DNA of 64,000 bases from Nakamurella sp. (GTDB taxonomy: Bacteria > Actinomycetota > Actinomycetes > Mycobacteriales > Nakamurellaceae): NCBI RefSeq assembly GCF_048594475.1, contig NZ_JBMDXT010000162.1, positions 2,093-66,092 on the forward strand. Direction: 5' to 3'. Each line of letters begins with the position of its first letter. The stretch's first letter is position 1. The position numbers and the translations under genes were made by a program. The notes beneath the pieces were generated by a model. That model was given only the letters and a program-made list of their open reading frames with translations, had not been told where the DNA came from and made no database searches. This document shows, piece after piece, positions 8,101-43,061 of this stretch.

Positions 8101-8790
8101 TCAGCCGCGGCGGGCGGGAATCGGATCGTCGGGCCGGAGCAATCCGCTCTTGTAGGCCACGGCCACCGCCTGGGCCCGGTCCCGGAGCCCGAGTTTGGCG
8201 AAGATCCGCCCGACGTGGGTCTTGGTGGTGCCTTCGCCGACGACCAGATGGTCGGCGATCTCGGCGTTGGACAGCCCGTGCGCGATGAGCACGAGCACCT
8301 CGCGTTCGCGCGGGGTCAGCACGCGGACCTCCTCCGGTCCGGGCAACTCCGACGGCGGGTGCGAGGCGAACTCGTCGATCAGTTGCCGGGCGACGGCCGG
8401 ATCGAGCCAGGCCTCCCCGCCGGCGACCGCGCGGACCGCCGCCACCAGTTCGGTGGGCGCGGCGTCCTTGAGCACGAACCCGCGCGCGCCGGCGCGCAGC
8501 GCCGCGTACACGGCCTCGTCGACGTGGAACGTGGTGAGCACCAGCACCTTGGGCGGATTGCCCGTCCGGTGCACGTCGCCCAGGATGCGGCGGGTGAGTT
8601 CGACGCCGTCCATCCGCGGCATCCGCACGTCGGCGATCACGACGTCGGGCCGGCGCCGGCGCACCAGGTCGACCACCTCGGGACCGCCGTCCAGATCGGC
8701 GATCACCTCGATGTCACATTCCCCGGCCAGCAGCAGCGCGATCCCGGACCGGACGATGGGCTCGTCGTCGACCACGAACACGGTGATCAC
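8101..8790 (-). CDS. NarL/LuxR-family response regulator
   Basis: Receiver domain (VFVVDDEPIV, PDVVIADVRMPRMDG, VLVLTT) plus LuxR HTH (LTPREREVLVLIAHGLSNAEIADHLVVGEGTTKTHVGRIF). 4-nt overlap with the upstream kinase gene. Confidence 0.95.
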   Translation of the reverse strand: MITVFVVDDEPIVRSGIALLLAGECDIEVIADLDGGPEVVDLVRRRRPDVVIADVRMPRMDGVELTRRILGDVHRTGNPPKVLVLTTFHVDEAVYAALRAGARGFVLKDAAPTELVAAVRAVAGGEAWLDPAVARQLIDEFASHPPSELPGPEEVRVLTPREREVLVLIAHGLSNAEIADHLVVGEGTTKTHVGRIFAKLGLRDRAQAVAVAYKSGLLRPDDPIPARRG

Positions 8791-10112
8791 CGGCCGGCCC
8801 CCTCGACCGTCCCTCCGAGGATGCCGGTGACCGGCCCCAGGGGCGCGCCGGACGGCCCGGTGCCCGCCGGCAGCCGGGCGGCGACCCGGAAGCCGCCGGC
8901 GCCGGTCGGCCCGGCGGAGAAGTCACCGCCGGCGATGGCCACCCGTTCGCGCAGGCCGGCCAGCCCGTGCCCGCCCATCTCCGCGGGCGGCTGAGGTCCG
9001 CCGGCGGCCGATCGGACCCCAATGCCGTCGTCCTCGACGGCGACCGTGACCTTCTCCGGCTCCCACTCGATCGTCACGGCGACCCGGGCGCCGGACCCGA
9101 GATGCTTGGTCACGTTGGTCAGCGCCTCCTGGATCAGCCGGTAGGCGGCCAGGTCGACGCTGGCGTCCAGGCGGTGCGGCTCGCCGGTGATCTCCAGCGT
9201 CGCGGTGACCCCGGACGACCGCACCGCGGCGAGCATCGGATCCACCTGGGCCAGCCCGGGCGTGGTCGCCCCGCTGCTGGCCACCGCGTCGGACTCGCGC
9301 AGCAGCGCGAGCAGGCGGCGCAGCTCCCCCATCGCCCGCTGGCCGGAGTCCTCGATGAGCGAGAGCGATTCGACGGCGCGATCCGGATCGGACCGCACGA
9401 CGCGCTGGGCGCCGGCGGCGTGCAGGACCATGATCGTCACCGAGTGGGCGACGATGTCGTGCAGCTCCCGCGCGATGCGCAGTCGCTCGACCGAGACCGC
9501 CTGGTCGGCGATCTGCCGCTGCTCGGCGACCTCGTGCTGGTGCGCGGCCTCGATCTCGTCCAGCCGACGCTGGTGCCGGCCGGTCCACCAGCCGAACGTC
9601 CAGGCCAGGACGGCTCCGGACCCGTAGAAGACGGTCGCGCCGACCGCCGAGGTCAACCGGCCGGATGCCGACGCATGGACCACGGCGCCGCCGATCAGCA
9701 GCGCGACGGGCACCGCCGCGGCCACCAGGCACCAGAGCGAGACCCGCGGCGGGCGCAGCTGGGCGACCGCCGCCAACGCCACCATCGGGACCAAGTACGG
9801 GAAGTAGTACTCGGTGGCCAGCAGCGGCGGCACGGACAGCACCACGGCGGCGACGAACACCGGAACCGGCTGCCGCCAGCGCAGCGCCAGCAGGGCGATG
9901 CCGGCCGCCGCGTACACCAGGATGGCGATCCGGTCGGCGACGTCGACCCCGTCGACGCGCAGGAGGCGGGAGAACACCAGGACGTCGGCGAGGAAGACCA
10001 GCGGGAGCACGATCAGGTCGATACGGTGCGTGATTCCCCAGCGACCCGGTCGGGTCGCGGCCGGCCCCTCGCCCGACCCGGTCAGCACAGCCACCAGAAG
10101 ATAGTGCACCAA
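8787..10112 (-). CDS. HisKA_3-type sensor histidine kinase with multi-TM N-terminus and no large external loop
   Basis: H-box RIARELHDIVAHSVT. HATPase motifs QEALTNVTKH, VEDDGIG, GHGLAGLRERV. About 5 closely spaced TM helices. Start is TTG 10112 or GTG 10109, inside the end of the upstream gene. Confidence 0.9.
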   Translation of the reverse strand: MVHYLLVAVLTGSGEGPAATRPGRWGITHRIDLIVLPLVFLADVLVFSRLLRVDGVDVADRIAILVYAAAGIALLALRWRQPVPVFVAAVVLSVPPLLATEYYFPYLVPMVALAAVAQLRPPRVSLWCLVAAAVPVALLIGGAVVHASASGRLTSAVGATVFYGSGAVLAWTFGWWTGRHQRRLDEIEAAHQHEVAEQRQIADQAVSVERLRIARELHDIVAHSVTIMVLHAAGAQRVVRSDPDRAVESLSLIEDSGQRAMGELRRLLALLRESDAVASSGATTPGLAQVDPMLAAVRSSGVTATLEITGEPHRLDASVDLAAYRLIQEALTNVTKHLGSGARVAVTIEWEPEKVTVAVEDDGIGVRSAAGGPQPPAEMGGHGLAGLRERVAIAGGDFSAGPTGAGGFRVAARLPAGTGPSGAPLGPVTGILGGTVEGAGR

Positions 10113-30168: not shown

Positions 30169-31143
30169 TCAGGCGGCGTTGCGCCAGCTGATGAGGTTGT
30201 TGAACACCGGCTCGGTGATGCGCGTGCCGTGATTGTTGGTACTGTGCGGCGAGCTCCCGTGGACGCCATAGGCGTGGATGGCCATCGAGCATTGGCCGAC
30301 GCAGAACGACGATCCGGCCGCCCGGTTCTGGTACACCGGCGATCCACTCATCCCACCGATGGTGTCGTTCTGGTAGAAGATCTGCCGATCCTGCGTGACC
30401 CGGACCTGATCGGTCGAACGCCACAGGGTGCCGAATGCCTTGTCACCGGGGTAGCCGGAAATCGTCGTCGGCAGGCCGGTCAGCGAGGCCGACTGCCACC
30501 AGAAGCCGAACCAGCCGGTCGAGTTGCCGACGGTGCAGTTCAGCTTGAGAGCACCGTAATCGTAGCGCTCGTCACCACTGCTGACCCACCCGCTGACGCT
30601 GTGCAGACGCCTCGCGGTGCAGGAACCGTAAGGAATCGATGCGCCGTTCCGTCCGGGGTACACCCGGAATGTCCCGCCGTAGAAGGCACCGGTGCCGCCC
30701 GGCGCCACGCAGTGACCGGCGGTGGCGACGGTGTTGGAATTGATCATCCAGCCCGTGCACCAACCGTTTCCGTCCCGGGTGATATGGACGATCGCCCGGT
30801 ACGGAAAGCTCGTCGTGGCCGTGATCTGCACCCGGTTGTCCGCCCCGATGACGGATTCCTGGCCATTCTCGGCATGCTCGACGGTGGTGCCGCTTTCGGC
30901 CGGCGGAGCACTCTCCGTGCCCTTCACGGTCACTCCCGTACCGGCGAAGGAGTTGACGCCACGGAGATTGGTGCTGAATTCGGGTGCGGTCGAGGTGGAG
31001 CCGTCACTCGCGACGGCCGTGTTCGGGTCGTTGCTCGGCTTCGGCTTCGAGCCGGCCGATGCCGGGCTCACCGTCATGACCAAGGCGGCACAGACGGTGA
31101 TCGCGGCGGTGGCCGCCGCGGTGATCGTGCGCAATCGCTTCAT
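30169..31143 (-). CDS. Secreted trypsin-fold serine protease (S1, Glu-endopeptidase-like)
   Basis: Signal peptide ending PASA. Catalytic triad contexts: TAGHC, DYGALKL, GGMSGSP. Confidence 0.9.
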   Translation of the reverse strand: MKRLRTITAAATAAITVCAALVMTVSPASAGSKPKPSNDPNTAVASDGSTSTAPEFSTNLRGVNSFAGTGVTVKGTESAPPAESGTTVEHAENGQESVIGADNRVQITATTSFPYRAIVHITRDGNGWCTGWMINSNTVATAGHCVAPGGTGAFYGGTFRVYPGRNGASIPYGSCTARRLHSVSGWVSSGDERYDYGALKLNCTVGNSTGWFGFWWQSASLTGLPTTISGYPGDKAFGTLWRSTDQVRVTQDRQIFYQNDTIGGMSGSPVYQNRAAGSSFCVGQCSMAIHAYGVHGSSPHSTNNHGTRITEPVFNNLISWRNAA

Positions 31144-31481: not shown

Positions 31482-32555
31482 CTATGCCTGGCTCGTCCCG
31501 GCCGAGTCGTCGCTCGGCAAGGTGGCGTACTGCATGTCCGGAACGTCGGCGACCTTCGCCATGGTGTTGATGCTGACGTGCGGCCACTTGATGCGACCCG
31601 GTCCACCGTCGAACCGCGGGAAGAAGTCGAGTTGGACGACCTGGGCGTACTGCAACAGGAACGTCGGGCCTCCGTGCTCGTCCCGCTCGGCAAGCTCATG
31701 GATGAAGAAGGTCGCCTTCATCTCGGATGCGTTGGCCTGCTTCACGATGAACGGAATGTTCTGGATGCCGGCGGCCGGCAGCGTGGTGTCGAACTCCAGG
31801 ACGGTCGTTCGAATGATGGTGCGCCCTTGGATGGCGTCCTTCAGGAGTGCGGTCGGGTCCGTGGGGTCGAACAGACCTTTGAACGGATTGTCGTGGAAGT
31901 GCCGGTAAGGGGCGAGGTACGGGTTGGTGGGACTCTGGTCCACGCCCATGGGCAGTGCATTGATGAACGGGATGGTGGCCGCGCCGTCAACGGTGGACGC
32001 CGTCCCCAGGCCCAGAGCGGCGTCCCCGTGCGGAATCGTGGCCAGTCGCGCGATGTCGGGACCACCCTCGCCATTGGGATCGGACATGTTGAGGAACAGG
32101 CCGGGTTCATGGTGGATCGCCAGTCCCGGGCCGCCGGCCAGGCCGCTGTCCGGGAAGTCTTCAGCGGCGATCTGCGAGATCGACTGCTCGTAGTCGAGAG
32201 TGACGACGACCTGATCGCTGTTGACGGTGCTCGGCGAGGTTCCACGGACGCCGCGGTTGGGCACGGCCTTGTCGACGAGATTGAACTTCAGCTCCTCGTT
32301 GAACTGGTTCAGCAGCAGCCGGAACCCCGGCCGTGAACCTGTCGATGGGTCGGCGCCCGGACCGGCCTCGGGCACGGCGACCGGCAAGGCGACCGGCAAG
32401 GCGATCATGTTCCATCCGCGGCCCGGCAGCCCGGGAAGGTTCGCCCAGACGCCCGGAAGCTCCTTGAACGGGCCAAGGTCCCTGTCCCCGGTGACGGCGG
32501 GACCGATGGTCCGGCCGCGGAGCTCGAGTTGACGTGCGAGGCTGGCGGTCAGCAT
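31482..32555 (-). CDS. Hypothetical 357-aa protein, possibly nitrobindin/lipocalin-like beta-barrel
   Basis: ATG 32555 preceded by AAGGAG-N6. LPGVWAN..GRGWNMIALP...NEELKF...LDYEQ...IHHEPGLF recalls the nitrobindin/THAP4 heme-binding barrel pattern. Assignment is tentative. Confidence 0.75.
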   Translation of the reverse strand: MLTASLARQLELRGRTIGPAVTGDRDLGPFKELPGVWANLPGLPGRGWNMIALPVALPVAVPEAGPGADPSTGSRPGFRLLLNQFNEELKFNLVDKAVPNRGVRGTSPSTVNSDQVVVTLDYEQSISQIAAEDFPDSGLAGGPGLAIHHEPGLFLNMSDPNGEGGPDIARLATIPHGDAALGLGTASTVDGAATIPFINALPMGVDQSPTNPYLAPYRHFHDNPFKGLFDPTDPTALLKDAIQGRTIIRTTVLEFDTTLPAAGIQNIPFIVKQANASEMKATFFIHELAERDEHGGPTFLLQYAQVVQLDFFPRFDGGPGRIKWPHVSINTMAKVADVPDMQYATLPSDDSAGTSQA

Positions 32556-32729
32556 GATCGACTCCTTGACGGATAAGGGATCTCGTCCCGACCGGGAATC
32601 GCTCGGCGGCTCGTCCAAGCGGCTCGATCATGGTTGGTCGAGGTGATGAATGCCGGCGACGCTCCCGGTTGCCTCATCGAGATTCGTCCTTTGGCTAGTC
32701 GGGACTCTCCAAAGATGTCGGCTTTTCGC

Positions 32730-32774: not shown

Positions 32775-33701
32775 ATGGACCACTCGATCGATCTGGACCT
32801 CGTCAGGACCCTGGTCGAGGTCCACCGGACGGGGAGCATGACGGCCGCGGCGGTCCGGCTGGGGATGTCCCAGCCGGCGGTGACCGCACATGTGAGAGCG
32901 CTCGAGAAACAACTCGGTCGAGTGCTTTTCGTCCGCCAACCGCGCGGTGTGACGGCCACTCCCTTTGCGGAGATGATCGCTGGTGAGGCCACGCCGCACG
33001 TCGACGCGCTCGACCGTCTGATCTCGGCGCCGCCGCCTGACCGGGACCCGGTGGCCGGGCATGCGATCGCGATAGGCGGGCCCGCAGAGTTCTCGACGGC
33101 GTATGTCGTGCCTGCCCTTGCGCCATTGGTGGCGCGGGGTCTGAGTGTGCGCTTCACCCTCGGCCTGCCAGAGGATCTGGTGGAGTCGCTGATCGCCGGG
33201 CATATCGACCTGGCGATCCTGACGGTACCGGTGCGACGGCGGGGGGTCACGCTGACGCCGCTGTGCGACGAGGAGTTGATCTTGATCGGGGCACCGCCGA
33301 GGGCGGCGAGATTGGCGCCCCGGCTGGCGAGCAATCCCTCGGACGAGGAACTCACCGCGGAGCCGCTGATCGCCTACGGCGAGCACATGCCGTTGATCCG
33401 ACGCTATTGGAACCTGGTGTTCGGATCGCGTCCCACCGGACGCCCGGCGATGGTCGTGCCGGACTTGCGGGGCGTCCTGACCGCCGTGTCAGCCGACGCC
33501 GGAATCGCAGTTGTGCCAGCCTATCTCGGTCGGCCGGCGGTCGAGCGCGGGGAGGTCGCGCGGCTGATGTCGCCGGCGTTGGCTCCGATCAACACGCTGT
33601 CGTTGGCGGCGTCCGGCCGGGCGATGGTTCAGGCGCACACCGCGGTTGTTCATTCGTTCCTGACCCAGGCAGGGCGCACGTGGGGAACGGCGACCGACTG
33701 A
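32775..33701 (+). CDS. LysR-family transcriptional regulator
   Basis: HTH LVRTLVEVHRTGSMTAAAVRLGMSQPAVTAHVRALEKQLG plus a LysR substrate-binding domain. Divergent from the 357-aa gene. Confidence 0.9.
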   Translation: MDHSIDLDLVRTLVEVHRTGSMTAAAVRLGMSQPAVTAHVRALEKQLGRVLFVRQPRGVTATPFAEMIAGEATPHVDALDRLISAPPPDRDPVAGHAIAIGGPAEFSTAYVVPALAPLVARGLSVRFTLGLPEDLVESLIAGHIDLAILTVPVRRRGVTLTPLCDEELILIGAPPRAARLAPRLASNPSDEELTAEPLIAYGEHMPLIRRYWNLVFGSRPTGRPAMVVPDLRGVLTAVSADAGIAVVPAYLGRPAVERGEVARLMSPALAPINTLSLAASGRAMVQAHTAVVHSFLTQAGRTWGTATD

Positions 33702-33713
33702 GCCTCGCCGCGC

Positions 33714-34289
33714 TCAGCTCAGCGGCAGACTGCCTCGGGAACGGGCGTCCGGATCGTCCGCCCGGTCGTCGAGAACGGCGAGGATCGCGTCGGCGAACAC
33801 GTCCGAGTCATCCGGCCGACGGCTCGTCACGATGGGTCCGTCCCTGACCACCGGCGCATCGACCCACACCCCGCCCGCGTTGCGGACATCGGTCCGAACT
33901 GACGCCCATCCGGTGAGGCGGCGGCCGCGAACGGCGTCGGCTTCGACGAGCAGCCACGGACCGTGGCAGATCGCCGCCACCGGACGATCCGCGGCGATCA
34001 TCGCGCGAAGGAATGCCATGACCCCGCGATCGATGCGGAGGCGGTCCGGCGAGTGACCGCCCGGGATCACCACCGCGTCGAAATCCGCCACCGTGGCCTG
34101 GGCGGCGCCGAGCGCCACCGGTACGACGTCGGCTCCATGCTTGCCGACGATCGACGAGTCCGCGACCGGGCCGACGATCACCGGCTCGTGCCCGGCGCGC
34201 CGGAGACGGTCGTAGGGGACGCCGAACTCCGTCTCGTCGAATCCGTCGGTCATGAGGAATGCCACGCGCCTGGCCCTGCGTCCGGTCAT
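33714..34289 (-). CDS. DJ-1/PfpI-family protein (Cys-His nucleophile elbow present)
   Basis: VAFLMTDGFDETE, VVIPGGHSPD, nucleophile elbow AAICHGPWLL. ATGA overlap with the upstream HAD gene. Confidence 0.9.
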   Translation of the reverse strand: MTGRRARRVAFLMTDGFDETEFGVPYDRLRRAGHEPVIVGPVADSSIVGKHGADVVPVALGAAQATVADFDAVVIPGGHSPDRLRIDRGVMAFLRAMIAADRPVAAICHGPWLLVEADAVRGRRLTGWASVRTDVRNAGGVWVDAPVVRDGPIVTSRRPDDSDVFADAILAVLDDRADDPDARSRGSLPLS

Positions 34290-35044
34290 GTCCGGCTCCC
34301 GAGGTCCAGCCGGCGGGCGGCCTGCTCGATCGACAGCGGTGTCACGCCCATCGTCCGGGCCTGGATCCGATGCTCCGTCGTTGAATATCCCCAGCCCGCC
34401 CAGGAGGATCCGTAGCCGGCCCCCCGCGCGTCGAACACGTTGTCCAGGCTGTCGTCCACGAGGTGGACGCGATCGCGTTCGACCTCTTCACGGGTGGCGA
34501 TGGCGGCCAAAGCGCCCAGCTTTTCGGTCCGGTCGCCGAAGACGCGGTCGGGGTCAATCTCGACGTCGAATGATCCGATCAGGTCCACCACCGACCTGAC
34601 ATCGCGGGCGGTCACGATGTAGCCGCTCCGGGCGACGGTTTCGACAAGAGGTCGAACACCGCGGTACACCTGGTGCAGGGCGAGCCACGACTCCGGTCGA
34701 TTCCGCCTGATCTGTCCTCGATAGTCGGTGACGCGGCCGATGAAGCCGGCGATCTCGCGTTCCGGGATCGTCCGGTAGACCGCGTCGAAATCCCGCCGGC
34801 TGGTGATGGTCCCGGAGGATCGGACGGCGACGAGAAAGTGCCCGAGGCTGCGGGCGTAGCCTCGAAGCTCCCGGAATCGGCGGCGGAACGGCTCGGGGAT
34901 CGACCGGAAGGTCGACGCGTCGAAATCGAGCGGGGACCACCCGTGCTGGCCCGCCCAGCTCACGGTCGCGCACTCCCGCCGGCTGTCGCAGATCACGCCG
35001 TCGAAGTCGAGGGCCAGAACGGCATCCCTGGTCACCGGCGCCAT
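34286..35044 (-). CDS. HAD-superfamily hydrolase
   Basis: ATG 35044 within ORF 34286-35281. HAD motif I LALDFDGVICDS. Late Asp motif HLVDDSLDNV. TGATG 1-nt overlap with the upstream gene. Confidence 0.8.
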   Translation of the reverse strand: MAPVTRDAVLALDFDGVICDSRRECATVSWAGQHGWSPLDFDASTFRSIPEPFRRRFRELRGYARSLGHFLVAVRSSGTITSRRDFDAVYRTIPEREIAGFIGRVTDYRGQIRRNRPESWLALHQVYRGVRPLVETVARSGYIVTARDVRSVVDLIGSFDVEIDPDRVFGDRTEKLGALAAIATREEVERDRVHLVDDSLDNVFDARGAGYGSSWAGWGYSTTEHRIQARTMGVTPLSIEQAARRLDLGSRT

Positions 35045-35601
35045 CACGATGCGATTCTGCGGGGGGCCGTCGCGACGCGTTCCGTTTCGTGCAGGACTGC
35101 CCGCATGAACGTGCCGACGTGACCGTAGTAGGAGCACGTGATGATGTTCCCGTCCACCACCACCTCGGCGTCCTCGACCAGCGCTCCGGAATTCACCATG
35201 TCGTCGCGCAAGCCCGGGTAGGCGCACGCCCGGCGGCCCTTCATCACCCCGGCCGAGATCATGATCCACGGACCGTGGCACAGGCCGGCGACGATCTTGC
35301 CCTGCTCAGCCATCGCCCGCACGAAGGCCAGGACGGTTCGGTCCTGGCGAACGCGGTCCGGGGCCTCGTGTCCCCCGGTGAGGACGACCAGGTCGTACGT
35401 CGCCGGATCGAGGTCGTCGAACGAGATCAGTGGCGCCGCCGTCTTGTCCATGGGCAGCGGGACCCCGTACTTGCCGGCCACGGCGCCCGCGGCTTTGGTG
35501 GCCACGTCCACGTGATGGTGCGCCTCGCGCAGACGGTAGTAGGTGTAGACCACGTCGTGGTCCTGGAAACCCGGGCCGGTGATGATGACCGATCGAGTCA
35601 T
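35044..35601 (-). CDS. DJ-1/PfpI-family protein (Cys-His nucleophile elbow present)
   Basis: ATG 35601 preceded by GGAGG-N6. VVLTGGHEAPD, AGLCHGPWIM. ATGA overlap with the upstream cupin gene. Confidence 0.9.
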   Translation of the reverse strand: MTRSVIITGPGFQDHDVVYTYYRLREAHHHVDVATKAAGAVAGKYGVPLPMDKTAAPLISFDDLDPATYDLVVLTGGHEAPDRVRQDRTVLAFVRAMAEQGKIVAGLCHGPWIMISAGVMKGRRACAYPGLRDDMVNSGALVEDAEVVVDGNIITCSYYGHVGTFMRAVLHETERVATAPRRIAS

Positions 35602-36395
35602 GGGTTGCCTCCGATGGCAGATGAGGTGGACAGGTCCCGGTGTCCCGGCGCCTGGTCGGCACGGGAGCGGGTGATGGTGAGATACAGGCCGTCGTGCTCG
35701 GCCGCGGTGGGCACGAGCCACCCCGGCAGGACCACGACCGTGTGGTTCAGTGCGGTGGCGATGTCGAGCGACACGGCGAACGCCAGCTCGAGGCAGGGAC
35801 GGCTGACCAGGTCGAGGCCGGCTCTGATGGTGAACTCGAAACCGTCCAGCGATGCGTTCTTGCGCAGACGCCCGCCCGGAATGAGCGCGGACGCCTGCAG
35901 CTCCGGAATGGAGGCGAGGCGTTCGGTCTCGTACTGAGTTCCGGTGCGACCGTAGCGGTCGTGCGATCGGACGAGATCGAGTTTGTTCCTGGGCACTTCC
36001 ACCTCGATCAGGTCCAGGGCCCCGTCCCCGGCGTTCCGCGTGCCGTGGAAGACACCCGGCTCGAGAATCACGAGGTCTCCGGCCGACACCGTCTGCGCAC
36101 CCTGCAGCGTCCCGAGGTGGGCCGAGCCGGCCAGGCAGAGCAATGCGGTCAGTTTGCGCGGATGGCAATGGGTCGAGGTTGCCTCGCCCGGATCAAGGCG
36201 CAGCTTCCAGACGTCGTAGAGGTCGTCAGAATACACCCGGAACTCGTGGCCCCACGGCTTCGGGATCAAGTCGTTGAGGTAGCGGTGGTCCGGTAGGTCC
36301 ACCTGCTCGGCCCGCAGGGCCGTCGATGCGGTCCGCAGAGACGTTTGCAGAGTATCGAGGTCGCGCGGTGAGCGCGAATACCGGGTCGATCCCAT
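35598..36395 (-). CDS. Cupin-domain protein (type II mannose-6-phosphate-isomerase-like cupin)
   Basis: Last 265 codons of ORF 35598-37946. ATG 36395 follows GAAGGA. KPWGHEFRVY. Cupin motif 1 STHCHPRKLTALLCLAG. Motif 2 GDLVILEPGVFHGTRN. Confidence 0.8.
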   Translation of the reverse strand: MGSTRYSRSPRDLDTLQTSLRTASTALRAEQVDLPDHRYLNDLIPKPWGHEFRVYSDDLYDVWKLRLDPGEATSTHCHPRKLTALLCLAGSAHLGTLQGAQTVSAGDLVILEPGVFHGTRNAGDGALDLIEVEVPRNKLDLVRSHDRYGRTGTQYETERLASIPELQASALIPGGRLRKNASLDGFEFTIRAGLDLVSRPCLELAFAVSLDIATALNHTVVVLPGWLVPTAAEHDGLYLTITRSRADQAPGHRDLSTSSAIGGNP

Positions 36396-36436
36396 GTCGT
36401 TCCTTCGTGAGCGTCGGGTTTGCAACGAGCTCCGGT

Positions 36437-37105
36437 TCAGGCGGCCGCCAACCGCTCTCGGGTGTCGATGAGCAGGGACATGGCGTGTGGCACGGAAGCC
36501 GTGTTCTGCGCCGTGATGACCCCGGCGTCGGACATCACGTGCGAGAGCCAGTTCGGCCCGGCACTGTAGTGAGCGCCCGCTGCCCTGAGACGATGCTCCG
36601 TGGAATCGATCCCGATGCAGTGGTGGCCGAGGGCTCGATCCTCCGCGGAGCTGCGCCCGGTCATTCGCAGACCGGCGATCCGCGGAATGCCGTCGGGTCC
36701 GACGACCTGTGCCAATGCGGCGGCGCCTTGGTCGATGGCGACGACCGTTCGGCCGGCGGACAGGGCCCGGTCGAGCATTCGCACGAGCCGCTCGTCGGTA
36801 CGAAGGTCGACCAGAACCCCGGCACCGCCCAGGAGGACGTACGCCTCGAAGTCGCGATCGAGGTCGGGGAGCCCGACGCCGGTGGCAGCGATGTCGCGGG
36901 CACCCGACCATTCCTCCGACAAGCTCCCGGAATGCACCGGGACGGGGCCGCCCGACGGCGACGCCAGCGTCATCTCCAGCCCGGCTTCGACGAGTGATCG
37001 GTGCACCATGCCGAGTTGGGTCGCAGAGACGCCGGTGGACCCGTCGAGGTCGTGGTCGTCGCCGACGATCGAGCACGACGTCGCGACGACAAGCGTTGTC
37101 ATCAT
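36437..37105 (-). CDS. DJ-1/class-I glutamine-amidotransferase-like protein lacking the nucleophile Cys
   Basis: ATG 37105 preceded by AGGAAGG-N9. Hsp31/DJ-1-like layout (TTLVVATS.., YVLLGGAG). The elbow reads VAIDQGAAAL instead of xxxCHGP. Confidence 0.7.
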   Translation of the reverse strand: MMTTLVVATSCSIVGDDHDLDGSTGVSATQLGMVHRSLVEAGLEMTLASPSGGPVPVHSGSLSEEWSGARDIAATGVGLPDLDRDFEAYVLLGGAGVLVDLRTDERLVRMLDRALSAGRTVVAIDQGAAALAQVVGPDGIPRIAGLRMTGRSSAEDRALGHHCIGIDSTEHRLRAAGAHYSAGPNWLSHVMSDAGVITAQNTASVPHAMSLLIDTRERLAAA

Positions 37106-37165
37106 CAGCAGTTGCCTTCCTGATCGCATTCTGGTTCGGATGAACGCCCGGACCTCGTCCGAGGG

Positions 37166-37831
37166 TCAGGCAGCGGCCTGGTCCGCCGCTTCCTTCCGCT
37201 TCTCGATGAGAGTGATCAGGTCGTGAAGCGGCTTGGTGCCCGCACCGATGATCAAGGCCGTCCCCAGGACCTCCATCCAGAAGTACGGAACCGGGATCCC
37301 GACGGTGGACAGCAGGTAGAAGCCGAACGAACCGCTCGCCAGCGCGGCCAGGCCGGTGGCCAGACCCCAGAAGAGGATGGTCTTCTCGGCGGTTCGACGG
37401 GCGTCCTTGGCCTTGGCCCCGGCAGCGGACTTGACCGCCTCGGCGACCTCCGCCTCGCCGATCGACGGGTCGGCGGCGGCCATGCGGGCAGCCTGCATCG
37501 TCGTGAGTGCCGCGCTCCTTTCCTCGTCCCCGATCCCGAGGAACAGGGCGACCGGCTCGAGGAGCCGCTCCAGGGCCTGAGCGCCGACGAAGAAGACAGC
37601 GAAAATGGTCAGTCCCTCGACGAGGGCCGGAGTGGTGGCGGGTGGAAAGGTGGTGTGCGGCAGGAACTCCGACGCGACGAACACGCAGGCAGCGACGAAA
37701 GCGCCCGCGATGAGCACGACGGCCCATGTCGGACTCGTTGGCTCGGTCGAGCTTTCGCTGAACGGGGCCGCGACGATGCTCTTGTCGTACGGGTCGGTGG
37801 TCCGGTTGATGACGGAAACGGTGGCGACCAT
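37166..37831 (-). CDS. Membrane protein (4 TM helices with a central Ala/Lys-rich segment), first gene of the DJ-1 operon
   Basis: ATG 37831 preceded by GGAGG-N6. Helices: WAVVLIAGAFVAACVFVASEF, GLTIFAVFFVGAQAL, ILFWGLATGLAALASGSFGFYLL, MEVLGTALIIGAG. Confidence 0.7.
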   Translation of the reverse strand: MVATVSVINRTTDPYDKSIVAAPFSESSTEPTSPTWAVVLIAGAFVAACVFVASEFLPHTTFPPATTPALVEGLTIFAVFFVGAQALERLLEPVALFLGIGDEERSAALTTMQAARMAAADPSIGEAEVAEAVKSAAGAKAKDARRTAEKTILFWGLATGLAALASGSFGFYLLSTVGIPVPYFWMEVLGTALIIGAGTKPLHDLITLIEKRKEAADQAAA

Positions 37832-38500
37832 GTGATTCCTCCAGGGGCCGTCGAGGTGGCTGGTGCATGGGTGCGGGACGGGGAGCCCGGCCGGACGGCG
37901 TGTCCGTCGGGGCCCCGGGGTCAGCGGGAAATTGGATTCCGCCCATTCCGGGGGCGGTACCGAGTTCCGGGCCGGCGTAGCCCGGAGGTGCTGGTCGTAC
38001 CGAAAAGCAGATGCTCGAGCGGGCCGATTTCCGCTCGGACGGGAAACGGCCCGGCCGGGTGCGCTCAGAGAGCAGCCCGAATGTTTCCGGGGCCGGCCCG
38101 GGCGGTCATCACCGGTGGTGGCTCAGCTGTCCATCGCGTGCCTCCAGTAAGAACCCGACGCAGCCGGTCGGCTCACTCGATCGTGTCGAACCATCCGGTC
38201 GAGGTCATCATTTGTCCGGATGATCCCTTCCGTCCGACCCCGGGAGGACGGAGCGCATCACCCTCGCCGCGCGATCGGTGGTCCTCACCGATCACACAGT
38301 TCGTTCCGCATCGATTCCCAGCTCCAACGGCGCGCCGTGCGCCCGCCGTCCTACCGGAGCACGACGGACAGGTCCTTCCTGCGGACGACGCGCTCGCGGC
38401 CCGACCTCGCGAGTATTGGTCCGATCGACGAGCGTGGATCGCCCTGCGAATCCAATGAGCCTTGTGCGACGATTAATCCTTGGTGTCCGATTGGGGGTTC

Positions 38501-41158
38501 ATGATGAGCAATGCGATGAACTGCGTCCCGAAGGCCAATCAGCCGGACGACCGCGGTGAATGGGTCACGGGCCGGTACCTGGCCGACAACGGACGCTGGT
38601 TCGTCCAGCTGCGGATCGGCGCCGGCCGACGTCCGACGGTCAGCGCCGACCTTCAGGTCCGTGACGGGTCGAGCCTGATCGAGCTGTCGATGCTCGCTCG
38701 ATCGCCGGACGCGGCCCCTGCTCGGCCGGGCGGCACCCAGGACATCGAAAGCGACGCTCCCGAGGAGGCGTGGCCGCAGCCTGAACGGGAAGCCGTCTTC
38801 GCCGACGGACGGGGCGCGCTGTCGTCCGGGAAGGTCCGCGTCGACATCGTCGACCACGGGCTTGTCGACGTGACCTTCACTCTCGGACGGGGCCTGGCCG
38901 GGCTTGTCTCCGGGTATTCGGTGACCCTCAGAGCCGCCCGGGTGAGCACGGCACTGCGCGACGTCGGGCTGGAGGTCGAGTACGAGTCGGGCGTGGAGAG
39001 GTATTTCACCGATGAACTGCACGACGCCAAGTCAGCTCTCGAGAAGGTTTTGCATCAAGCGGGTCTGGACATCCACGAGGTCGGTCGGCGCACCGTCATC
39101 GACAGTCCCCCCGGCGGGGCATGGTCGGCGTCGGACGTCTTCACCGCCCTGAACAATCAGCTGCGAGCCGCGGCCCAATCCCCACTGACATCGCCGGTGT
39201 GGGAACTGCACCTGCTGCTGCTGTCCAAGAGCAGCCGGGACGGCCTGCTGGGCATGATGTTCGATTTCGCCGATGATCTGCCTCGACAGGGCGCCGCGGT
39301 ATTCGTCGAAGCGGTCCACGACAGTTGCCCGGACAAGAAGGATTCACCGACGCGAATCCTGGCCACGGCGGTGCACGAACTCGGACACTGCCTCAATCTC
39401 ACCCACCGCTTCACCCGCGACGTGGGGCGGGCGGACTCCCTGTCGTTCATGAACTACGACTGGGTCTATCGGGGTGGGCGGCACGCCGACCAGTACTGGC
39501 GGGATCGGCGCGACCCACTGTCGGAGGATCCCGGTCCGAACGCTCCCCGGAGACGGACGTTCGACGACGACGAGCTCGAGTTTCTGCGCCACGGACCTCG
39601 CTTCGAGGTCATCCCGGGTGGTGCTCCATTCGGATCGGCCCGCTACTGGATCACCGCCGATGGGGGGTCGGCCGATCTACCGGTCCATCCCGATCCAGGT
39701 CTTCACCTGTGGCTGACTCCACCGGTCACCGGCACCCGGTTCAACTATCTGGACCCCGTCTTCCTCCAGGTCTCACTGCGGAACAAGGGTGGATCAGCTC
39801 GCCGCATGCCCCGGTATGCGCTCGACACGAAGGCGGGCCTGCTCGACATCGTCATCCGACGGCGCGCGGCGCCGGGACGGGGTGCCGCTTCGGACGGTGA
39901 CCTCTTCGTGCCGTTCATGCGCCGCTGTTTCAGCGTCACCGGCTCCCAGGAGATCGTGCTCCAACCGCGGGAGTCCCTGCACAACAACGTGAATCTGACG
40001 TTCGGCTCGGCCGGCTTCCCGCTGGCGGAGCCGGGGGAATACCTGATCACGCCCTTGCTGACATTGTTCGACGTTGATCCGAGCGTCGAGGGGCGACCGA
40101 GCCTGACGGTGGTTCAGGGTCCGGAACTCGCCATCACCATCGACCCCCCGGACACCCGGGCCCGCGAACGCGATGCCGACCTCGTCCTGCGCAATGACGT
40201 GGGCGCCAGCTTCGCGCTCGGCGGCGCGGACTGTCTGCTGGCGGCGACCGAGACGCTGCAGATGCTCGTCGAGCGACGCGATCGTGACGATCGGGGCGGT
40301 CGCCCGGACGGGCTGCGGGCCGCCGCCGCCCGCGTGGTGGGGCTGAACGCACTTCGCCACGATCGGGGCGGCGAGGCGGCCCGATGGCTGAGAGTCGCCA
40401 CCGAGCCGACGTCGCTGGCGACGTTCGACCCGCACACCGCCGAGCACACGAGACGGATGGCCGCGAAGCGAACGGCCGCGCGGAGAACCGACACGGCCTA
40501 CCTGGACCTGACGGTGCAGGTCACCGAGGAGACCCGCCAGCGCAAGCGTCCGGTACCGGGCGTTCTCGTGTCGCAGGACGTCAAGATGTCCAGCGGTCGC
40601 CCGGGGAGCCTTCTGGTGGTCGACGCCACCACATTCGCCGGCGATCCGGTGGTCCGCGCCCAGGCCGTCGTCTCGACCGACGAGGGCAGCACCGAGACGG
40701 TCACTGTGCGGCAGATCGACGTCTTCGGCGCCGTCGGCGACAGCGGTCGGACCACCTCCGGTGACGGGGGACCCGGCCCGGTGGCCGTCGCCTATCTGGA
40801 CCGGGTCCTGACCGGCGGCGGGTCGGCCGCGAAGGTCGATCTCGGGGTCCTTCGCTCCGATGTGGGACGGACGGCGGACGGTGTGCGAGGCGTCCTGACC
40901 CGGGCCGGCCTGGAAATCCCATCTGCGGATGACGATCTCGACGCCGGCCCGTTGCGCGTGGTCGCCGCCGCGGGCCACGCAGCACCCTGGGACGGCAATG
41001 ACGACGGGTCCGCCCCGGCCCAGGAGGTGCGCAGCGAGTCCTACATCTGGCACAAGGCGGCCTGGAAGTGGTGCTGGTTTCTCAACATCTGTCACGAGGG
41101 GCCGCCCGACCCGTACGCCAGCGGTGAGTCCGGCCCGGACCGCCCCCCGGACGCATGA
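38501..41158 (+). CDS. 885-aa multidomain protein with metzincin-type HExxHxxxxxH motif and no signal peptide
   Basis: ORF 38480-41158; ATG 38501/38504 follow GGGGG. HELGHCLNLTH at 39374-39406, then SFMNYD. Hydrophilic N-terminus. C-terminal WKWCWFLNIC at 41066-41095. GC3-rich throughout. Confidence 0.85.
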   Translation: MMSNAMNCVPKANQPDDRGEWVTGRYLADNGRWFVQLRIGAGRRPTVSADLQVRDGSSLIELSMLARSPDAAPARPGGTQDIESDAPEEAWPQPEREAVFADGRGALSSGKVRVDIVDHGLVDVTFTLGRGLAGLVSGYSVTLRAARVSTALRDVGLEVEYESGVERYFTDELHDAKSALEKVLHQAGLDIHEVGRRTVIDSPPGGAWSASDVFTALNNQLRAAAQSPLTSPVWELHLLLLSKSSRDGLLGMMFDFADDLPRQGAAVFVEAVHDSCPDKKDSPTRILATAVHELGHCLNLTHRFTRDVGRADSLSFMNYDWVYRGGRHADQYWRDRRDPLSEDPGPNAPRRRTFDDDELEFLRHGPRFEVIPGGAPFGSARYWITADGGSADLPVHPDPGLHLWLTPPVTGTRFNYLDPVFLQVSLRNKGGSARRMPRYALDTKAGLLDIVIRRRAAPGRGAASDGDLFVPFMRRCFSVTGSQEIVLQPRESLHNNVNLTFGSAGFPLAEPGEYLITPLLTLFDVDPSVEGRPSLTVVQGPELAITIDPPDTRARERDADLVLRNDVGASFALGGADCLLAATETLQMLVERRDRDDRGGRPDGLRAAAARVVGLNALRHDRGGEAARWLRVATEPTSLATFDPHTAEHTRRMAAKRTAARRTDTAYLDLTVQVTEETRQRKRPVPGVLVSQDVKMSSGRPGSLLVVDATTFAGDPVVRAQAVVSTDEGSTETVTVRQIDVFGAVGDSGRTTSGDGGPGPVAVAYLDRVLTGGGSAAKVDLGVLRSDVGRTADGVRGVLTRAGLEIPSADDDLDAGPLRVVAAAGHAAPWDGNDDGSAPAQEVRSESYIWHKAAWKWCWFLNICHEGPPDPYASGESGPDRPPDA

Positions 41159-42372
41159 TGACCAGGCACCCGGGCGCCCCGTCACGGCTGCGGTCAGTCG
41201 GTCGGCCGCCGCCGTGGAGCGACATCGGGCTGGCGACCGTCCTGTTCGTGGTGGATACGCTGGTGTTCTCGTCGATCACCGTGGTCAGCCAGGGCGGCGT
41301 CCCGGCGCTTCTGCTGAGCATCGGGGTCTTCGCACCGCTCGCGTGGCGGACGATCGCACCCGTGCGGGTCTTCTTCGTCGTCTGGTTCTTCACGGTGTCC
41401 GCGGCGCTGGTCGTCCCGGAGCTGAGGCCGGTGCTCGCCCTCCTGGTCGCCACCTACACCATGTCGAGCAGGACGGACTTGCGGACATCACTGCTGGCAC
41501 CCGCGCTCGCCGTCCCGACCGGAGGTGTGATCGCGGTCAGCGCGGAGCTCGATCAGAACCCCGAGATGCAGGCGTGGACCATCGCCGTCAGCGTCGGCGT
41601 GCTCGTCGGCCTGCTCAATCTCGCGCCGTGGCTGCTCGGCCGATGGGTCTACGCAAGCCGATCCGCGGTGGCGGCTCTCGAACTGGCTCGACAACGCGAA
41701 GCCGAACAGGCCCGGGTGGAGGAACGCCGGCAGATCGCCCTGGAACTCCACGACATCATCTCGCACTCCGTCACCGTCATGGTGCGGCAGGCCGACGGCG
41801 CCCGCGCGGTCCTCGGAGGCGACCCCGCCGCGGTCGCCAATTCCCTCGAGCTGATCGCGAAGGTGGGTCGTGATTCCATCGGCGAGTTGCGACGTCTGCT
41901 CGGTGTGCTGACCGATGGAACGCTCGCGCCGGTCGCGAGTGAGGCCGCCGGACTCGCCGATCTGACCACGGTGATCGACGACGCCGAGCGGGATGGGCTG
42001 CGGGTACGCCTGCAGGTCAGTGGCCGCCAACCGCCCGTGCCCGACAGTTTCGAGCGCACCGTCTTCCGGATCGTTAAGGAAGGTCTGGTCAACGCCCGCA
42101 AGCACGGCGGGCATGGCAACCGGGTGACCGTGCAGATGTTCTGGAGCGACAGCGTTCTCGTCCTGACGATCGCCGACACCGGCGGGCAACCCGACTCCGA
42201 CGCCTCGTTGTCGACGGGGAACGGTCTGAACGGATTGCGGGAACGAGTCCGGGCGAGCAATGGTCGGCTCGACGCCGGGCCGGGCCCGGACGGGGGCTTC
42301 GCCGTGACCGCGACCCTTCCGATCCCGCCGACGGCCACGCCGGTGACGACGGCGGGAGGCAGCCAGCCGTGA
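41155..42372 (+). CDS. HisKA_3-type sensor histidine kinase with multi-TM N-terminus and no large external loop
   Basis: ATGA overlap with the upstream gene. H-box QIALELHDIISHSVT. HATPase motifs KEGLVNARKH, ADTGG, GNGLNGLRERV. About 5 closely spaced TM helices. Confidence 0.9.
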   Translation: MMTRHPGAPSRLRSVGRPPPWSDIGLATVLFVVDTLVFSSITVVSQGGVPALLLSIGVFAPLAWRTIAPVRVFFVVWFFTVSAALVVPELRPVLALLVATYTMSSRTDLRTSLLAPALAVPTGGVIAVSAELDQNPEMQAWTIAVSVGVLVGLLNLAPWLLGRWVYASRSAVAALELARQREAEQARVEERRQIALELHDIISHSVTVMVRQADGARAVLGGDPAAVANSLELIAKVGRDSIGELRRLLGVLTDGTLAPVASEAAGLADLTTVIDDAERDGLRVRLQVSGRQPPVPDSFERTVFRIVKEGLVNARKHGGHGNRVTVQMFWSDSVLVLTIADTGGQPDSDASLSTGNGLNGLRERVRASNGRLDAGPGPDGGFAVTATLPIPPTATPVTTAGGSQP

Positions 42373-43061
42373 CGGTGCGCGTGCTGGTGGTCGACGATCA
42401 CGCGCTGATCCGCACCGGCCTGGCGATGCTGTTGAACGCCCAGCCTGACATCCAGGTCGTCGCCGAGGCCCGGGACGGAGCCGAGGCGATCGCCATGGCC
42501 GCCGAGCATCAGCCCGACGTCGTCCTCATGGACGTCCGGATGCCCGGGACCGACGGGGTCACCGCCACGAGGCATCTTGTCCAGGAGCCCGACGATGTCG
42601 ACCACCTCGTCAAGGTGATCATCCTGACGACCTACAACGCCGACGACGCCGTCTACGCCGCGCTCCGCGCCGGGGCATCCGGGTTTCTGCTCAAGGACGC
42701 CGAGCCGGACGAGCTCATTCGCGCCGTCCGTGCGGTCGCCGCCGGCGACGGGTGGCTCGATCCGTCCGTCGCCCGGCGGTTGATCTCCGAGTTCCGTTCC
42801 CGCCCGGACACGAACCTGGCGCCGTCGGACGCACTCGCCCAGCTCACTGCGAGAGAGCGTCAGGTGCTCATTCTCATGGCCCACGGGCTGACAAACGACG
42901 ATCTCGTCGAACGTCTCACCGTCGAGATGACGACCGTCAAGACACATGTCGGACGAATCCTGATGAAACTGGCCGTCCACGATCGCGCGCAGGCGGTCGC
43001 AACCGCCTATCAGCACGGACTGGTCCGACCCGGTGATCCCCCGCCCCGCTATGGCGGGTAA
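42369..43061 (+). CDS. NarL/LuxR-family response regulator
   Basis: GTGA overlap with the kinase gene. Receiver motifs VLVVDDHALI, PDVVLMDVRMPGTDG. HTH LTARERQVLILMAHGLTNDDLVERLTVEMTTVKTHVGRIL. Confidence 0.95.
   Translation: MTVRVLVVDDHALIRTGLAMLLNAQPDIQVVAEARDGAEAIAMAAEHQPDVVLMDVRMPGTDGVTATRHLVQEPDDVDHLVKVIILTTYNADDAVYAALRAGASGFLLKDAEPDELIRAVRAVAAGDGWLDPSVARRLISEFRSRPDTNLAPSDALAQLTARERQVLILMAHGLTNDDLVERLTVEMTTVKTHVGRILMKLAVHDRAQAVATAYQHGLVRPGDPPPRYGG

Follow-up and report, generated by a model that had tools for sequence, protein, structure and literature searches.

A 64,000-nucleotide stretch of the genome of Nakamurella sp. (contig NZ_JBMDXT010000162.1, positions 2,093 to 66,092; the whole stretch is hereafter called the window) contains an operon at 33714–37831 that encodes three proteins of the DJ-1/PfpI superfamily, a cupin, a HAD-superfamily hydrolase, and a putative transmembrane protein. 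Within this operon lies a unit that recurs in many other genomes. Its fixed core, hereafter the cassette, consists of the cupin, a PfpI-type DJ-1 protein (DJ1b), and a HAD phosphatase, encoded in that order, and its usual companions are an Hsp31-like DJ-1 protein (DJ1a in the window) and a LysR-family regulator. The cassette is apparently an undescribed module made from known enzyme types, with all of its parts in known superfamilies. Its most plausible function is to detoxify a compound that is phosphorylated or of the aldehyde type.

Conservation of the cassette

One genome per prokaryotic species was scanned with two cupin peptide patterns. The scan yielded 149 candidate stretches, 127 of which encode a relative of the cupin, and the best 80 of these 127 (L013–L092) were used. 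Because the loci were picked through the cupin alone, their other genes form an unbiased sample of its neighbors. Gene order was determined by tblastn with the window proteins, and DJ-1 types were assigned by hmmsearch with three custom profiles over 7 kb on each side; the DJ-1 counts per locus are lower bounds, some of the contigs being short.

A DJ1b-type gene follows the cupin directly and on the same strand in all 80 loci. The HAD-type gene is present in 79 of the 80 and lies within 400 nt after the DJ1b-type gene in 75; in four loci (L018, L020, L021, and L025) it follows an insert of 436–1206 nt, and in one (L083) tblastn did not find it at the locus. Chance juxtaposition of the genes is ruled out by these counts (80/80 and 75/80). 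An Hsp31-like DJ-1 gene lies within 7 kb in 75 of the 80 loci, and a fourth DJ-1 type (elbow AANCSGVG, ~284 aa) is present in 24 by hmmsearch and in 17 by clustering of open reading frames (ORFs). The longer order seen in the window, Hsp31-like→cupin→PfpI→HAD, is kept in 13 loci (10 Actinomycetota, 2 Betaproteobacteria, and 1 Nostoc).

The first-pass annotation of the window had proposed a gene-neighborhood census and had made its interpretation depend on the gene order being conserved somewhere else. The order is indeed found elsewhere: cupin→PfpI→HAD recurs in 75–79 of the 80 loci, and this core order is kept across several phyla. The six-gene operon as a unit is not conserved, as the transmembrane protein and the last DJ-1 protein of the operon (DJ1c) are without counterpart in the 80 loci. 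The three DJ-1 paralogues that had been singled out as unusual are present, but such a number is normal for the cassette. The loci hold one DJ-1-superfamily ORF in 5 cases, two in 25, three in 36, four in 11, and five in 3; that is, at least two in 75 of the 80 and at least three in 50.

Natural fusions and co-divergence

The cupin and the PfpI protein are also found as parts of single chains. Among 19 of the longer matches to the cupin profile that were scanned against Pfam, P0277 (851 aa) has a full-length cupin of the family followed by a PfpI domain 50% identical to DJ1b, with a loop insert, PLDMPAKP, in the same loop as PLPMDKTA of DJ1b. P0293 (387 aa) begins with a PfpI domain, 44% identical to DJ1b, and continues with a cupin barrel. 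The C-terminal 250 residues of P0277 were considered as a possible HAD domain, and this assignment was ruled out (hhalign probability 0.3). Five further proteins (P0344, P0347, P0324, P0355, and P0352) have distant relatives of the cupin at the N terminus of thiamin diphosphate (ThDP) enzymes, and the ThDP part of P0344, P0355, and P0324 is acetolactate-synthase-like, scoring below every equivalog cut-off in NCBIfam. The ESM Atlas gave a lead of the same kind, in which cupin residues 2–263 align (TM-score 0.71) to the N terminus of an 853-aa ThDP-enzyme cluster with 69 members. These cupin–ThDP fusions may mark a sister pathway.

The HAD protein is fused as well. In Kribbella and a related metagenome-assembled genome (MAG) (L070, L073, L075, and L079, at ~8295–9869), it is joined to the fourth DJ-1 type, and a gene for a Ferritin-like protein (PF12902) follows; the fused DJ-1 domain of L079 is 66% identical to the free-standing 284-aa Streptomyces gene. 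The pair formed by the fourth DJ-1 type and the ferritin-like gene occurs in 17 of the 80 loci and is not in the window. When longer HAD fusions were searched for, two unrelated ones came up, but not that of Kribbella.

Pairwise distance matrices of the cupin, DJ1b, and the HAD, computed over 79 loci and the window, correlate with Spearman coefficients of 0.86–0.90, a value reached in none of 500 label permutations. The three proteins evolve at markedly different rates: on average, pairs of DJ1b sequences are 76% identical, pairs of cupins 52%, and pairs of HAD proteins 44%. DJ1b is the most conserved cassette member, being 63–78% identical to its counterpart in all 80 loci.

Distribution

By the record titles of the loci, 62 of the 80 come from Actinomycetota (35 from Streptomyces), 7 from Gammaproteobacteria (6 from Enterobacterales), 3 each from Betaproteobacteria and Alphaproteobacteria, 2 each from cyanobacteria and Polyangiaceae, and 1 from an unclassified member of the Pseudomonadota. 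The culturable carriers are Streptomyces, Nocardia, Kribbella, Serratia, Pantoea, Rahnella, and Brenneria. Mobile-element genes neighbor the cassette in Brenneria (a phage-type integrase) and in Nostoc (a transposase), and an additional copy, L102, lies on the Rouxiella badensis plasmid NZ_CP060593.1 (6989–12408) beside a recombinase gene and arsenic-resistance genes. The plasmid copy is annotated as 'cupin domain-containing protein,' 'DJ-1/PfpI family protein,' and 'type 1 glutamine amidotransferase domain-containing protein.' No gene is listed at the expected place of its HAD (8316–9072), and its LysR and major facilitator superfamily (MFS) genes are annotated as short fragments, which suggests that this copy is decaying, even though the gene table of the plasmid is known to be incomplete.

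In a set of 61 related genomes that includes G000 (36 of them are of the same genus), just two, G000 and G026, have the cupin family, and the same two alone have the DJ1b subfamily and the HAD family. The G026 copies are 50% (cupin, E 2.5e-68), 74% (DJ1b), and 44% (HAD) identical to those of the window, and the other PfpI matches to DJ1b in these genomes are at most 46% identical. Of 400 more genomes sampled evenly across the phylum, one gave a match to the cupin, and that match is partial; the cassette is therefore rare and patchy. A metagenome scan for close relatives returned two contigs only, of 1755 and 1301 bases, too short for context. By these sequence comparisons, the cassette is mobile and extends across phyla; it appears to be a horizontally spread accessory module, of which the window holds one lineage's version.

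The operon in the window

The ORF list and translations of the window show the six genes head to tail on the minus strand, in the places and in the order reported by the first-pass annotation, in a region with a G+C content of 0.66–0.71 (Table 1). That inventory was correct for the six genes but overlooked the convergent LysR gene, the stop codon of which is 12 nt from that of DJ1c. The ATGA overlaps it had described for cupin/DJ1b (35598–35601) and HAD/DJ1c (34286–34289) are found in the sequence, as is the TGATG at 35044, which makes the DJ1b/HAD overlap 1 nt; with the GTG at 35047 as start codon, it would be a 4-nt GTGA instead. Of the two gaps reported upstream, that of 41 nt between DJ1a and the cupin is right, but the gap of 60 nt between the transmembrane protein and DJ1a applies only to the ATG at 37105, the distance to the first ATG (37129) being 36 nt. 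The ATG at 37105 is preceded by GGAAGG and agrees with the start of relatives, and it is the probable true start of DJ1a. A scan of the region detected no promoter-like site and placed 4 terminator-like sites within genes, where 1.4 were expected; it is uninformative at such high G+C content. At the sequence level, the operon is real and tightly packed.

Table 1. Genes of the operon and the convergent regulator gene, with domain matches
Feature	Position	Strand	Description
Transmembrane protein	37166–37831	-	221 aa; four hydrophobic stretches; no match in Pfam/NCBIfam
DJ1a, Hsp31-like DJ-1, degenerate active site	36437–37129	-	230 aa; DJ-1_PfpI E 1.1e-7
Cupin, two-domain, PMI-type-II-like barrel	35598–36395	-	265 aa; Cupin_2 E 3e-10
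DJ1b, PfpI-type DJ-1	35044–35601	-	185 aa; DJ-1_PfpI E 1.6e-41
HAD-superfamily hydrolase, Gph-like C1-cap type	34286–35044	-	252 aa; four HAD motifs; no Pfam match
DJ1c, second canonical PfpI/YhbO-type	33714–34289	-	191 aa; DJ-1_PfpI E 9.3e-48
LysR-family regulator, convergent with operon	32775–33701	+	HTH_1 and LysR_substrate

The cupin

Within the cassette, the cupin serves as the marker gene. With 40.1 bits against Cupin_2 (cut-off 27.2) and its metal-binding His residues, the protein is a member of the cupin superfamily. It also matches MannoseP_isomer in Pfam (24.5 bits, cut-off 23.6, E 3.3e-5) and aligns to positions 360–466 of the 467-position GMP_PMI model. It does not belong to the type II phosphomannose isomerase (PMI)/GMP-PMI family, scoring 31.9 bits against a cut-off of 372.95 (TIGR01479) and 32.9 against 859 (NF012004), and it has no nucleotidyltransferase domain. 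The claim that both metal-binding motifs are kept stands for the His residues of both motifs, but the Glu of motif 1 is replaced by Leu in the window. An alignment of 27 sequences has H76, H78, and H117 invariant and, at the position of the motif-1 Glu, E in 17, D in 3, V in 3, Q in 2, and L in 2. Basic residues are invariant at eight further positions (R53, R80, K81, R136, K138, R143, R150, and R178), and the family has motifs of its own, namely HCHPRK and an invariant PRNKxDLxR. So many basic residues among the invariant ones would fit an anionic substrate.

About 190 relatives of the cupin are present in a large protein collection, all under generic source names. When 1.84 billion representative proteins were searched with a profile of the cupin alignment, 3063 matched at E ≤ 1e-3, 784 at E ≤ 1e-10, and 325 at E ≤ 1e-30. 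The AlphaFold2 (AF2) model (predicted local distance difference test, pLDDT, 85.7) has N-terminal helices, a barrel at about residues 44–134, and a C-terminal α/β domain. Its structure matches, at Z 10–12, are the Bacillus subtilis cysteine dioxygenase-like YubC, TM1459, germin, CapF, Thermococcus kodakarensis PMI, DddK, and KdgF. An assignment of function from structure was given up, as Foldseek and VIA-align return generic cupins only. A link to chlorine stress was likewise dropped: the cupin of PMC9751292 is a different protein of 131 aa.

The DJ-1 proteins

All three DJ-1 proteins are superfamily members by their PF01965 scores (cut-off 26.6 bits), which are 142.3 for DJ1b, 162.6 for DJ1c, and 32.2 for DJ1a. 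Against TIGR01382 (cut-off 139.05 bits), DJ1c scores above at 152.1, DJ1b just below at 137.5, and DJ1a fails at 22.3. Both PfpI-type elbows noted in the first pass are present, AAICHGPWLL in DJ1c and AGLCHGPWIM in DJ1b.

The nearest structure to DJ1b is PH1704 (E 6e-38). The DJ1b subfamily has the signatures GFQDHD, PLPMDKTA (an inserted loop), and ITCSYY. C108 and H109 are invariant in 28 of 28 DJ1b-type sequences and are the same in the aligned row of DJ1c. Aligned to PH1704, GFQDHD falls on FEDVE, with Asp in place of Glu, and this Asp (D16) is nearly invariant in the subfamily; DJ1c reads GFDETE and has Glu at that place. We take the second Glu of PH1704 FEDVE to be at the position of YhbO E17. 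Two recent reports describe Escherichia coli YhbO as a broad α-oxoaldehyde hydratase/glyoxalase that needs E17, G73, G74, C104, and H105 (PMC13449665) and Pseudomonas aeruginosa PfpI as a methylglyoxalase that needs C112 and H113 (PMC11987610). According to the latter, the protease and deglycase activities of the DJ-1/PfpI class are disputed in recent work (PMC11987610).

DJ1c is a local addition to the operon and is translationally coupled to the HAD. By tblastn it has no counterpart at its position in the 80 loci, and its best relative in the 60 related genomes is 47% identical.

DJ1a had been described as a DJ-1-like protein without Cys; it is identified here as an Hsp31-like protein that has lost its catalytic residues. 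Its nearest structures are 1u9c (E 1.3e-16) and 4p5p. The elbow reads AIDQGAA, with Cys replaced by Asp and His by Gln, and the conserved Glu is also Gln, so that DJ1a fails the Cys-His plus Glu signature of Hsp31-like glyoxalase III. Because the nucleophilic Cys, the His, and the Glu are all replaced, glyoxalase activity is not expected of DJ1a. The Hsp31-like copies of L013, L014, and L015 have an Asp-His elbow together with Gln for Glu, and a motif tally places an elbow Asp only in the window and in L013–L015 among the Hsp31-like ORFs of the set. Outside the window clade, 23 aligned Hsp31-like sequences have a C-H or C-Q elbow, and the copies in other loci keep TGFxxxE, AVCHGPA, and GQNPAS. 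L013 and L014 have a second, canonical Hsp31-like gene upstream; the window has DJ1c instead. That DJ1c compensates for the dead Hsp31-like copy is speculation: G026 (L015) has a dead Hsp31-like copy, and no extra DJ-1 gene was found within 7 kb on either side of its cupin.

The HAD phosphatase

The window HAD reaches no threshold of the Pfam or NCBIfam HAD models (HAD-IA, 17.2 bits against a cut-off of 29.4). Two of its relatives exceed the PF00702 cut-off of 26.4, namely L020 (33.6 bits) and the Kribbella fusion (37.5 bits). The DxDGV motif noted earlier is there and reads DFDGV. D13, D15, K175, D197, and D198 do not vary across an alignment of 29 sequences, in which the VTAKD..S region is also conserved; together these features account for all four HAD motifs. 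An acid at D+2, here D15, is typical of phosphotransferases in the HAD superfamily. Further invariant features of the 29 sequences are the E24–C25 pair after motif I, cap residues R61, R109, and R113, and a WAxWGY motif. Profile searches match the HAD to COG0546 phosphatases and phosphoglycolate phosphatases (E 1.3e-8) and, weakly, to a model for the phosphatase associated with 3-amino-5-hydroxybenzoate (AHBA) synthesis (E 0.0075). The AF2 model (pLDDT 93.4) has a Rossmann-like core with a helical C1 cap; its best Foldseek matches are 2hi0 (E 5e-7, TM-scores 0.61/0.64), 2ah5, and 2hsz, and the yeast enolase-phosphatase UTR4 (2g80) ranks 21 in the fold search.

Regulator, membrane protein, and accessory genes

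The regulator is of the LysR type by its HTH_1 (E 1.2e-19) and LysR_substrate (E 1.8e-20) domains. It is 53% identical to the LysR protein encoded beside the HAD in G026 (L012 and L015, which are the same locus) and 52% identical to that of L013. Relatives of the window LysR are found in most loci by tblastn and in 56 of 80 by clustering.

No tblastn match to the transmembrane protein was found in the 80 loci, in L012, or in the 60 related genomes. Its family comprises ~200 actinobacterial 'hypothetical proteins' without a Pfam domain; the closest of them is 59% identical, and the next, which comes from a Microlunatus MAG, 57%. The G026 operon begins at the Hsp31-like gene, after an intergenic region of ~190 nt. 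Because the operon starts there in G026, the transmembrane gene is probably a neighbor rather than a part of the cassette; read-through transcription from it is possible.

Accessory genes were counted after the ORFs of the 80 loci had been crudely clustered and one representative per cluster scanned against Pfam. The counts are lower bounds, as even PfpI escaped the ORF caller in some loci of high G+C content. The frequent extras are MFS transporter, vicinal oxygen chelate (VOC)/glyoxalase-fold, ferritin-like, and reductase or lactonase-like genes. MFS transporters fall in three clusters (19 + 13 + 9 of 80 loci, hence at least 41), followed by Ferritin-like proteins (PF12902; 17/80), ABM–glyoxalase fusions (14/80), short-chain dehydrogenases/reductases (SDR; 13/80), small VOC/glyoxalase proteins (8/80), and aldo-keto reductases (AKR; 6/80). 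A polysaccharide-deacetylase-family gene after the HAD is present in 6 loci, all from Enterobacterales, and MRJP/SGL-type β-propellers are encoded in a few loci of proteobacteria and myxobacteria.

L013 and L014 hold the cassettes nearest to that of the window. Directly after the HAD, both encode an extracytoplasmic function (ECF)-type sigma factor and a 162–166-aa protein without a Pfam match (L013, 9104–10554; L014, 9056–10527), with stop and start codons that overlap or abut; the window is without this sigma factor and small gene. On the other side of the operon, the window encodes an 892-aa protein with a HExxH-type motif (AVHELGHCLNLTH) and no match in Pfam/NCBIfam, at the beginning of a plus-strand group at 38480–43061. 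Its stop codon overlaps the start of a HisKA_3 histidine kinase gene (41155–42372), which itself overlaps the gene of a LuxR-type response regulator (42369–43061), and the three genes look like an operon divergent from the transmembrane gene. Just past LysR, the window encodes an FMP-type heme-binding protein on the minus strand (31482–32618; NF040572, E 1.1e-82). L013 has an animal-haem-peroxidase-like gene near its cassette, and a link between this gene and the heme protein of the window may be coincidence. A secreted trypsin-like protease is encoded on the minus strand at 30169–31143, ~2.5 kb from the cassette. Five Streptomyces loci (L053, L055, L064, L065, and L067) have a trypsin/alpha-lytic protease gene upstream of the cupin, with TetR beside four of them, which is probably coincidence.

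Possible function

We tentatively favor, at slightly short of even confidence, the idea that the cassette belongs to a LysR-linked module that processes a reactive α-dicarbonyl or α-hydroxycarbonyl compound, with a phosphorylated substrate or intermediate. In such a module, LysR would sense the compound or its damage and turn the operon on. The DJ-1 enzymes with a Cys-His pair (DJ1b and DJ1c in the window, the Hsp31-like protein elsewhere) would hydrate or isomerize an α-oxoaldehyde-type electrophile, as YhbO and P. aeruginosa PfpI do. The metal cupin, with three His, a PMI-like barrel, and a basic pocket, could isomerize or cleave the α-hydroxycarbonyl or enediol form of the same compound, working closely with PfpI and possibly as a complex. 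The Gph-like HAD would take phosphate off the substrate or the acid product. We infer what the enzymes do chemically, in which order they act, and what part LysR plays. Carbonyl chemistry is proposed because of the activities of the PfpI/Hsp31 class, the VOC, AKR, and SDR companions, and the ThDP fusion partners, which act on 2-oxo compounds. Phosphate is proposed because the HAD is constant and has intact phosphotransferase motifs, because the cupin pocket is basic, and because precedents exist in MtnC/MtnD and in the action of DJ-1 on cyclic 3-phosphoglyceric anhydride (cPGA). A bolder version, which we consider unlikely, would make the cupin and the DJ1b-type PfpI a dedicated two-enzyme machine that, together with the HAD, forms an undescribed DJ-1-dependent pathway acting on a phosphorylated reactive carbonyl metabolite. 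It is suggested because the two genes are adjacent in 80 of 80 loci and are fused in some organisms.

Several points weigh against a carbonyl-processing module. Control of the operon by LysR is not evident from the position of the regulator gene, which is convergent, and MFS and LysR genes fit catabolism or export equally. The accessory genes vary greatly by lineage and may mirror local context rather than one pathway. The matrix correlation could stem in part from shared organismal descent; because such descent contributes, the correlation is a measure of co-divergence and not of function. The generic cupin folds matched by the predicted structure cannot tell an isomerase, a dioxygenase, and a lyase apart. 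Other labels given to DJ-1/PfpI proteins are protease, amidase, and deglycase, and the chemistry of DJ1b may differ from that of YhbO because DJ1b has Asp for the PH1704 Glu and a TIGR01382 score under the cut-off.

An alternative is a catabolic route for an imported nitrogen- or sugar-containing compound (an amino sugar, an Amadori compound, or an amide), in which PfpI would be an amidase or deglycase, the cupin an aldose–ketose isomerase on a phosphorylated sugar, the HAD a phosphatase, MFS the importer, and LysR the activator. The cupin shares ancestry with the PMI domain of GMP/PMI enzymes, its top structure matches include the sugar isomerase and epimerase cupins CapF, T. kodakarensis PMI, and D-lyxose isomerase, and MFS genes (at least 41 of 80 loci) and the polysaccharide-deacetylase-family gene of the Enterobacterales (after the HAD, 6/80) would suit such a route. 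LysR regulators commonly activate catabolic operons. However, a kinase, a dehydrogenase, and an aldolase are not consistently found in the loci, which leaves no route into central metabolism; the recurrent Hsp31-like, VOC, AKR, and SDR partners are typical of detoxification; and the protease and deglycase activities of the class are disputed in recent work (PMC11987610). We regard catabolism, with these enzyme roles, as doubtful.

The sporadic, actinomycete-rich distribution of the cassette (35 of 80 loci are from Streptomyces) could instead reflect biosynthesis, with the cupin, PfpI, and the HAD tailoring a small metabolite or signal made from a sugar phosphate and exported by MFS, and the nearby MFS and ABM-domain genes as well as the weak match of the HAD to the AHBA-associated phosphatase model (E 0.0075) can be read in the same way. 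Such a cassette seems quite improbable given that no synthase, ligase, polyketide synthase/nonribosomal peptide synthetase, or aminotransferase is conserved in the loci and that the same triad occurs in unlike settings, among them islands of enterobacteria and a plasmid on which arsenic-resistance genes lie next to it. Historical annotation calls PH1704/PfpI 'protease I' and treats Hsp31 as a chaperone, so the two DJ-1 types might also act on damaged proteins as intracellular proteases or chaperones, with the cupin and the HAD as unrelated passengers. This protein quality control function is very hard to credit, as the supposed passengers accompany PfpI in 80 of 80 (cupin) and 79 of 80 (HAD) loci, a natural cupin–PfpI fusion exists, and P. 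aeruginosa PfpI (PMC11987610) and YhbO (PMC13449665) were shown to be glyoxalases.

The processing of a reactive carbonyl compound, possibly phosphorylated, thus remains the reading that we prefer, and the cassette matters for a wider question. The gene order, co-divergence, and fusion tie one PfpI subfamily to a specific cupin and phosphatase, a context that can point to a substrate and a pathway. DJ-1/PfpI proteins occur in all branches of life, and Parkinson's disease has been linked to one of them; their native substrates are disputed, with glyoxalase, deglycase, protease, and cPGA hydrolase among the proposed activities. If the cupin and DJ1b do form a two-enzyme machine, the cassette would make it possible for the first time to approach the disputed physiological substrate of the PfpI class at the level of an operon, and the fusions of cupins with acetolactate-synthase-like ThDP enzymes would represent a sister pathway on the same class of compound. 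If the cassette is just another reactive-carbonyl defense island, the result would be a useful annotation of three uncharacterized protein families and nothing further. The lineage of the window offers a natural experiment, in which the Hsp31-like partner has lost its catalytic residues and an extra PfpI has been gained. The presence of the cassette in culturable genera and on a plasmid makes the question directly testable.

Relation to known systems

The first-pass annotation knew of no described pathway that combines three DJ-1 proteins in one operon with a cupin and a phosphatase-type enzyme. Source names and RefSeq annotation are generic. A search of full-text literature, the coverage of which excludes subscription-only journals, found no paper on a cupin/PfpI/HAD cassette.

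Each part has relatives from which it departs. The cupin has a barrel similar to that of the type II PMI cupin domain and of CapF (Z 12.3 for CapF, 11.9 for T. kodakarensis PMI), but it has N-terminal helices and a C-terminal α/β domain of its own, and its partners are PfpI and the HAD, not mannose-pathway genes. The HAD shares fold, cap type, and four motifs with Gph-type phosphatases (COG0546; 2hi0, 2ah5, and 2hsz) but lies below Pfam thresholds and has its own invariant EC pair, cap Arg residues, and WAxWGY motif. The Hsp31-like neighbors match the Hsp31/Glx3 glyoxalase III proteins (4lru, yeast Hsp31, 4p5p, and 1u9c) at E 1e-47 to 1e-30, whereas DJ1a of the window has Asp for Cys, Gln for Glu, and Gln for His, the copies in L013–L015 keeping the His.

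Two known systems offer parallels. In methionine salvage, the HAD enolase-phosphatase MtnC is followed by the cupin acireductone dioxygenase (ARD) MtnD, in a phosphorylated 1,2-dicarbonyl/enediol chemistry like that proposed for the cassette. The cassette cupin, however, is PMI-like and not ARD-like, the other salvage genes are not present, and DJ-1 has no part in salvage. DJ-1 itself is reported to hydrolyze cPGA, a phosphorylated reactive by-product of glycolysis (PMC12135873 and PMC13449665). This provides an earlier example of a DJ-1-family enzyme with a phosphorylated electrophile as its substrate and would explain a phosphatase in the operon; the activity belongs to the DJ-1 clade proper, however, and not to PfpI, and a cupin or HAD partner is not described there. 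A third parallel is PDB entry 3fse, a single chain with DJ-1/ThiJ/PfpI-like and ferritin-like parts, which matches DJ1b at E 3.2e-20 and has the same make-up as the pair of genes for the fourth DJ-1 type and PF12902. It is a structural-genomics entry with a name that gives no function, and its gene-pair equivalent is absent from the window.

With the PfpI/YhbO class (PH1704, YhbO, and P. aeruginosa PfpI), DJ1b and DJ1c have domain, length, and Cys-His elbow in common. P. aeruginosa PfpI is described in PMC11987610 as having no detectable interaction partners. DJ1b differs from the class as a separate, very conserved subfamily, with Asp for the PH1704 Glu and with a gene that is always encoded right after that of a specific cupin.

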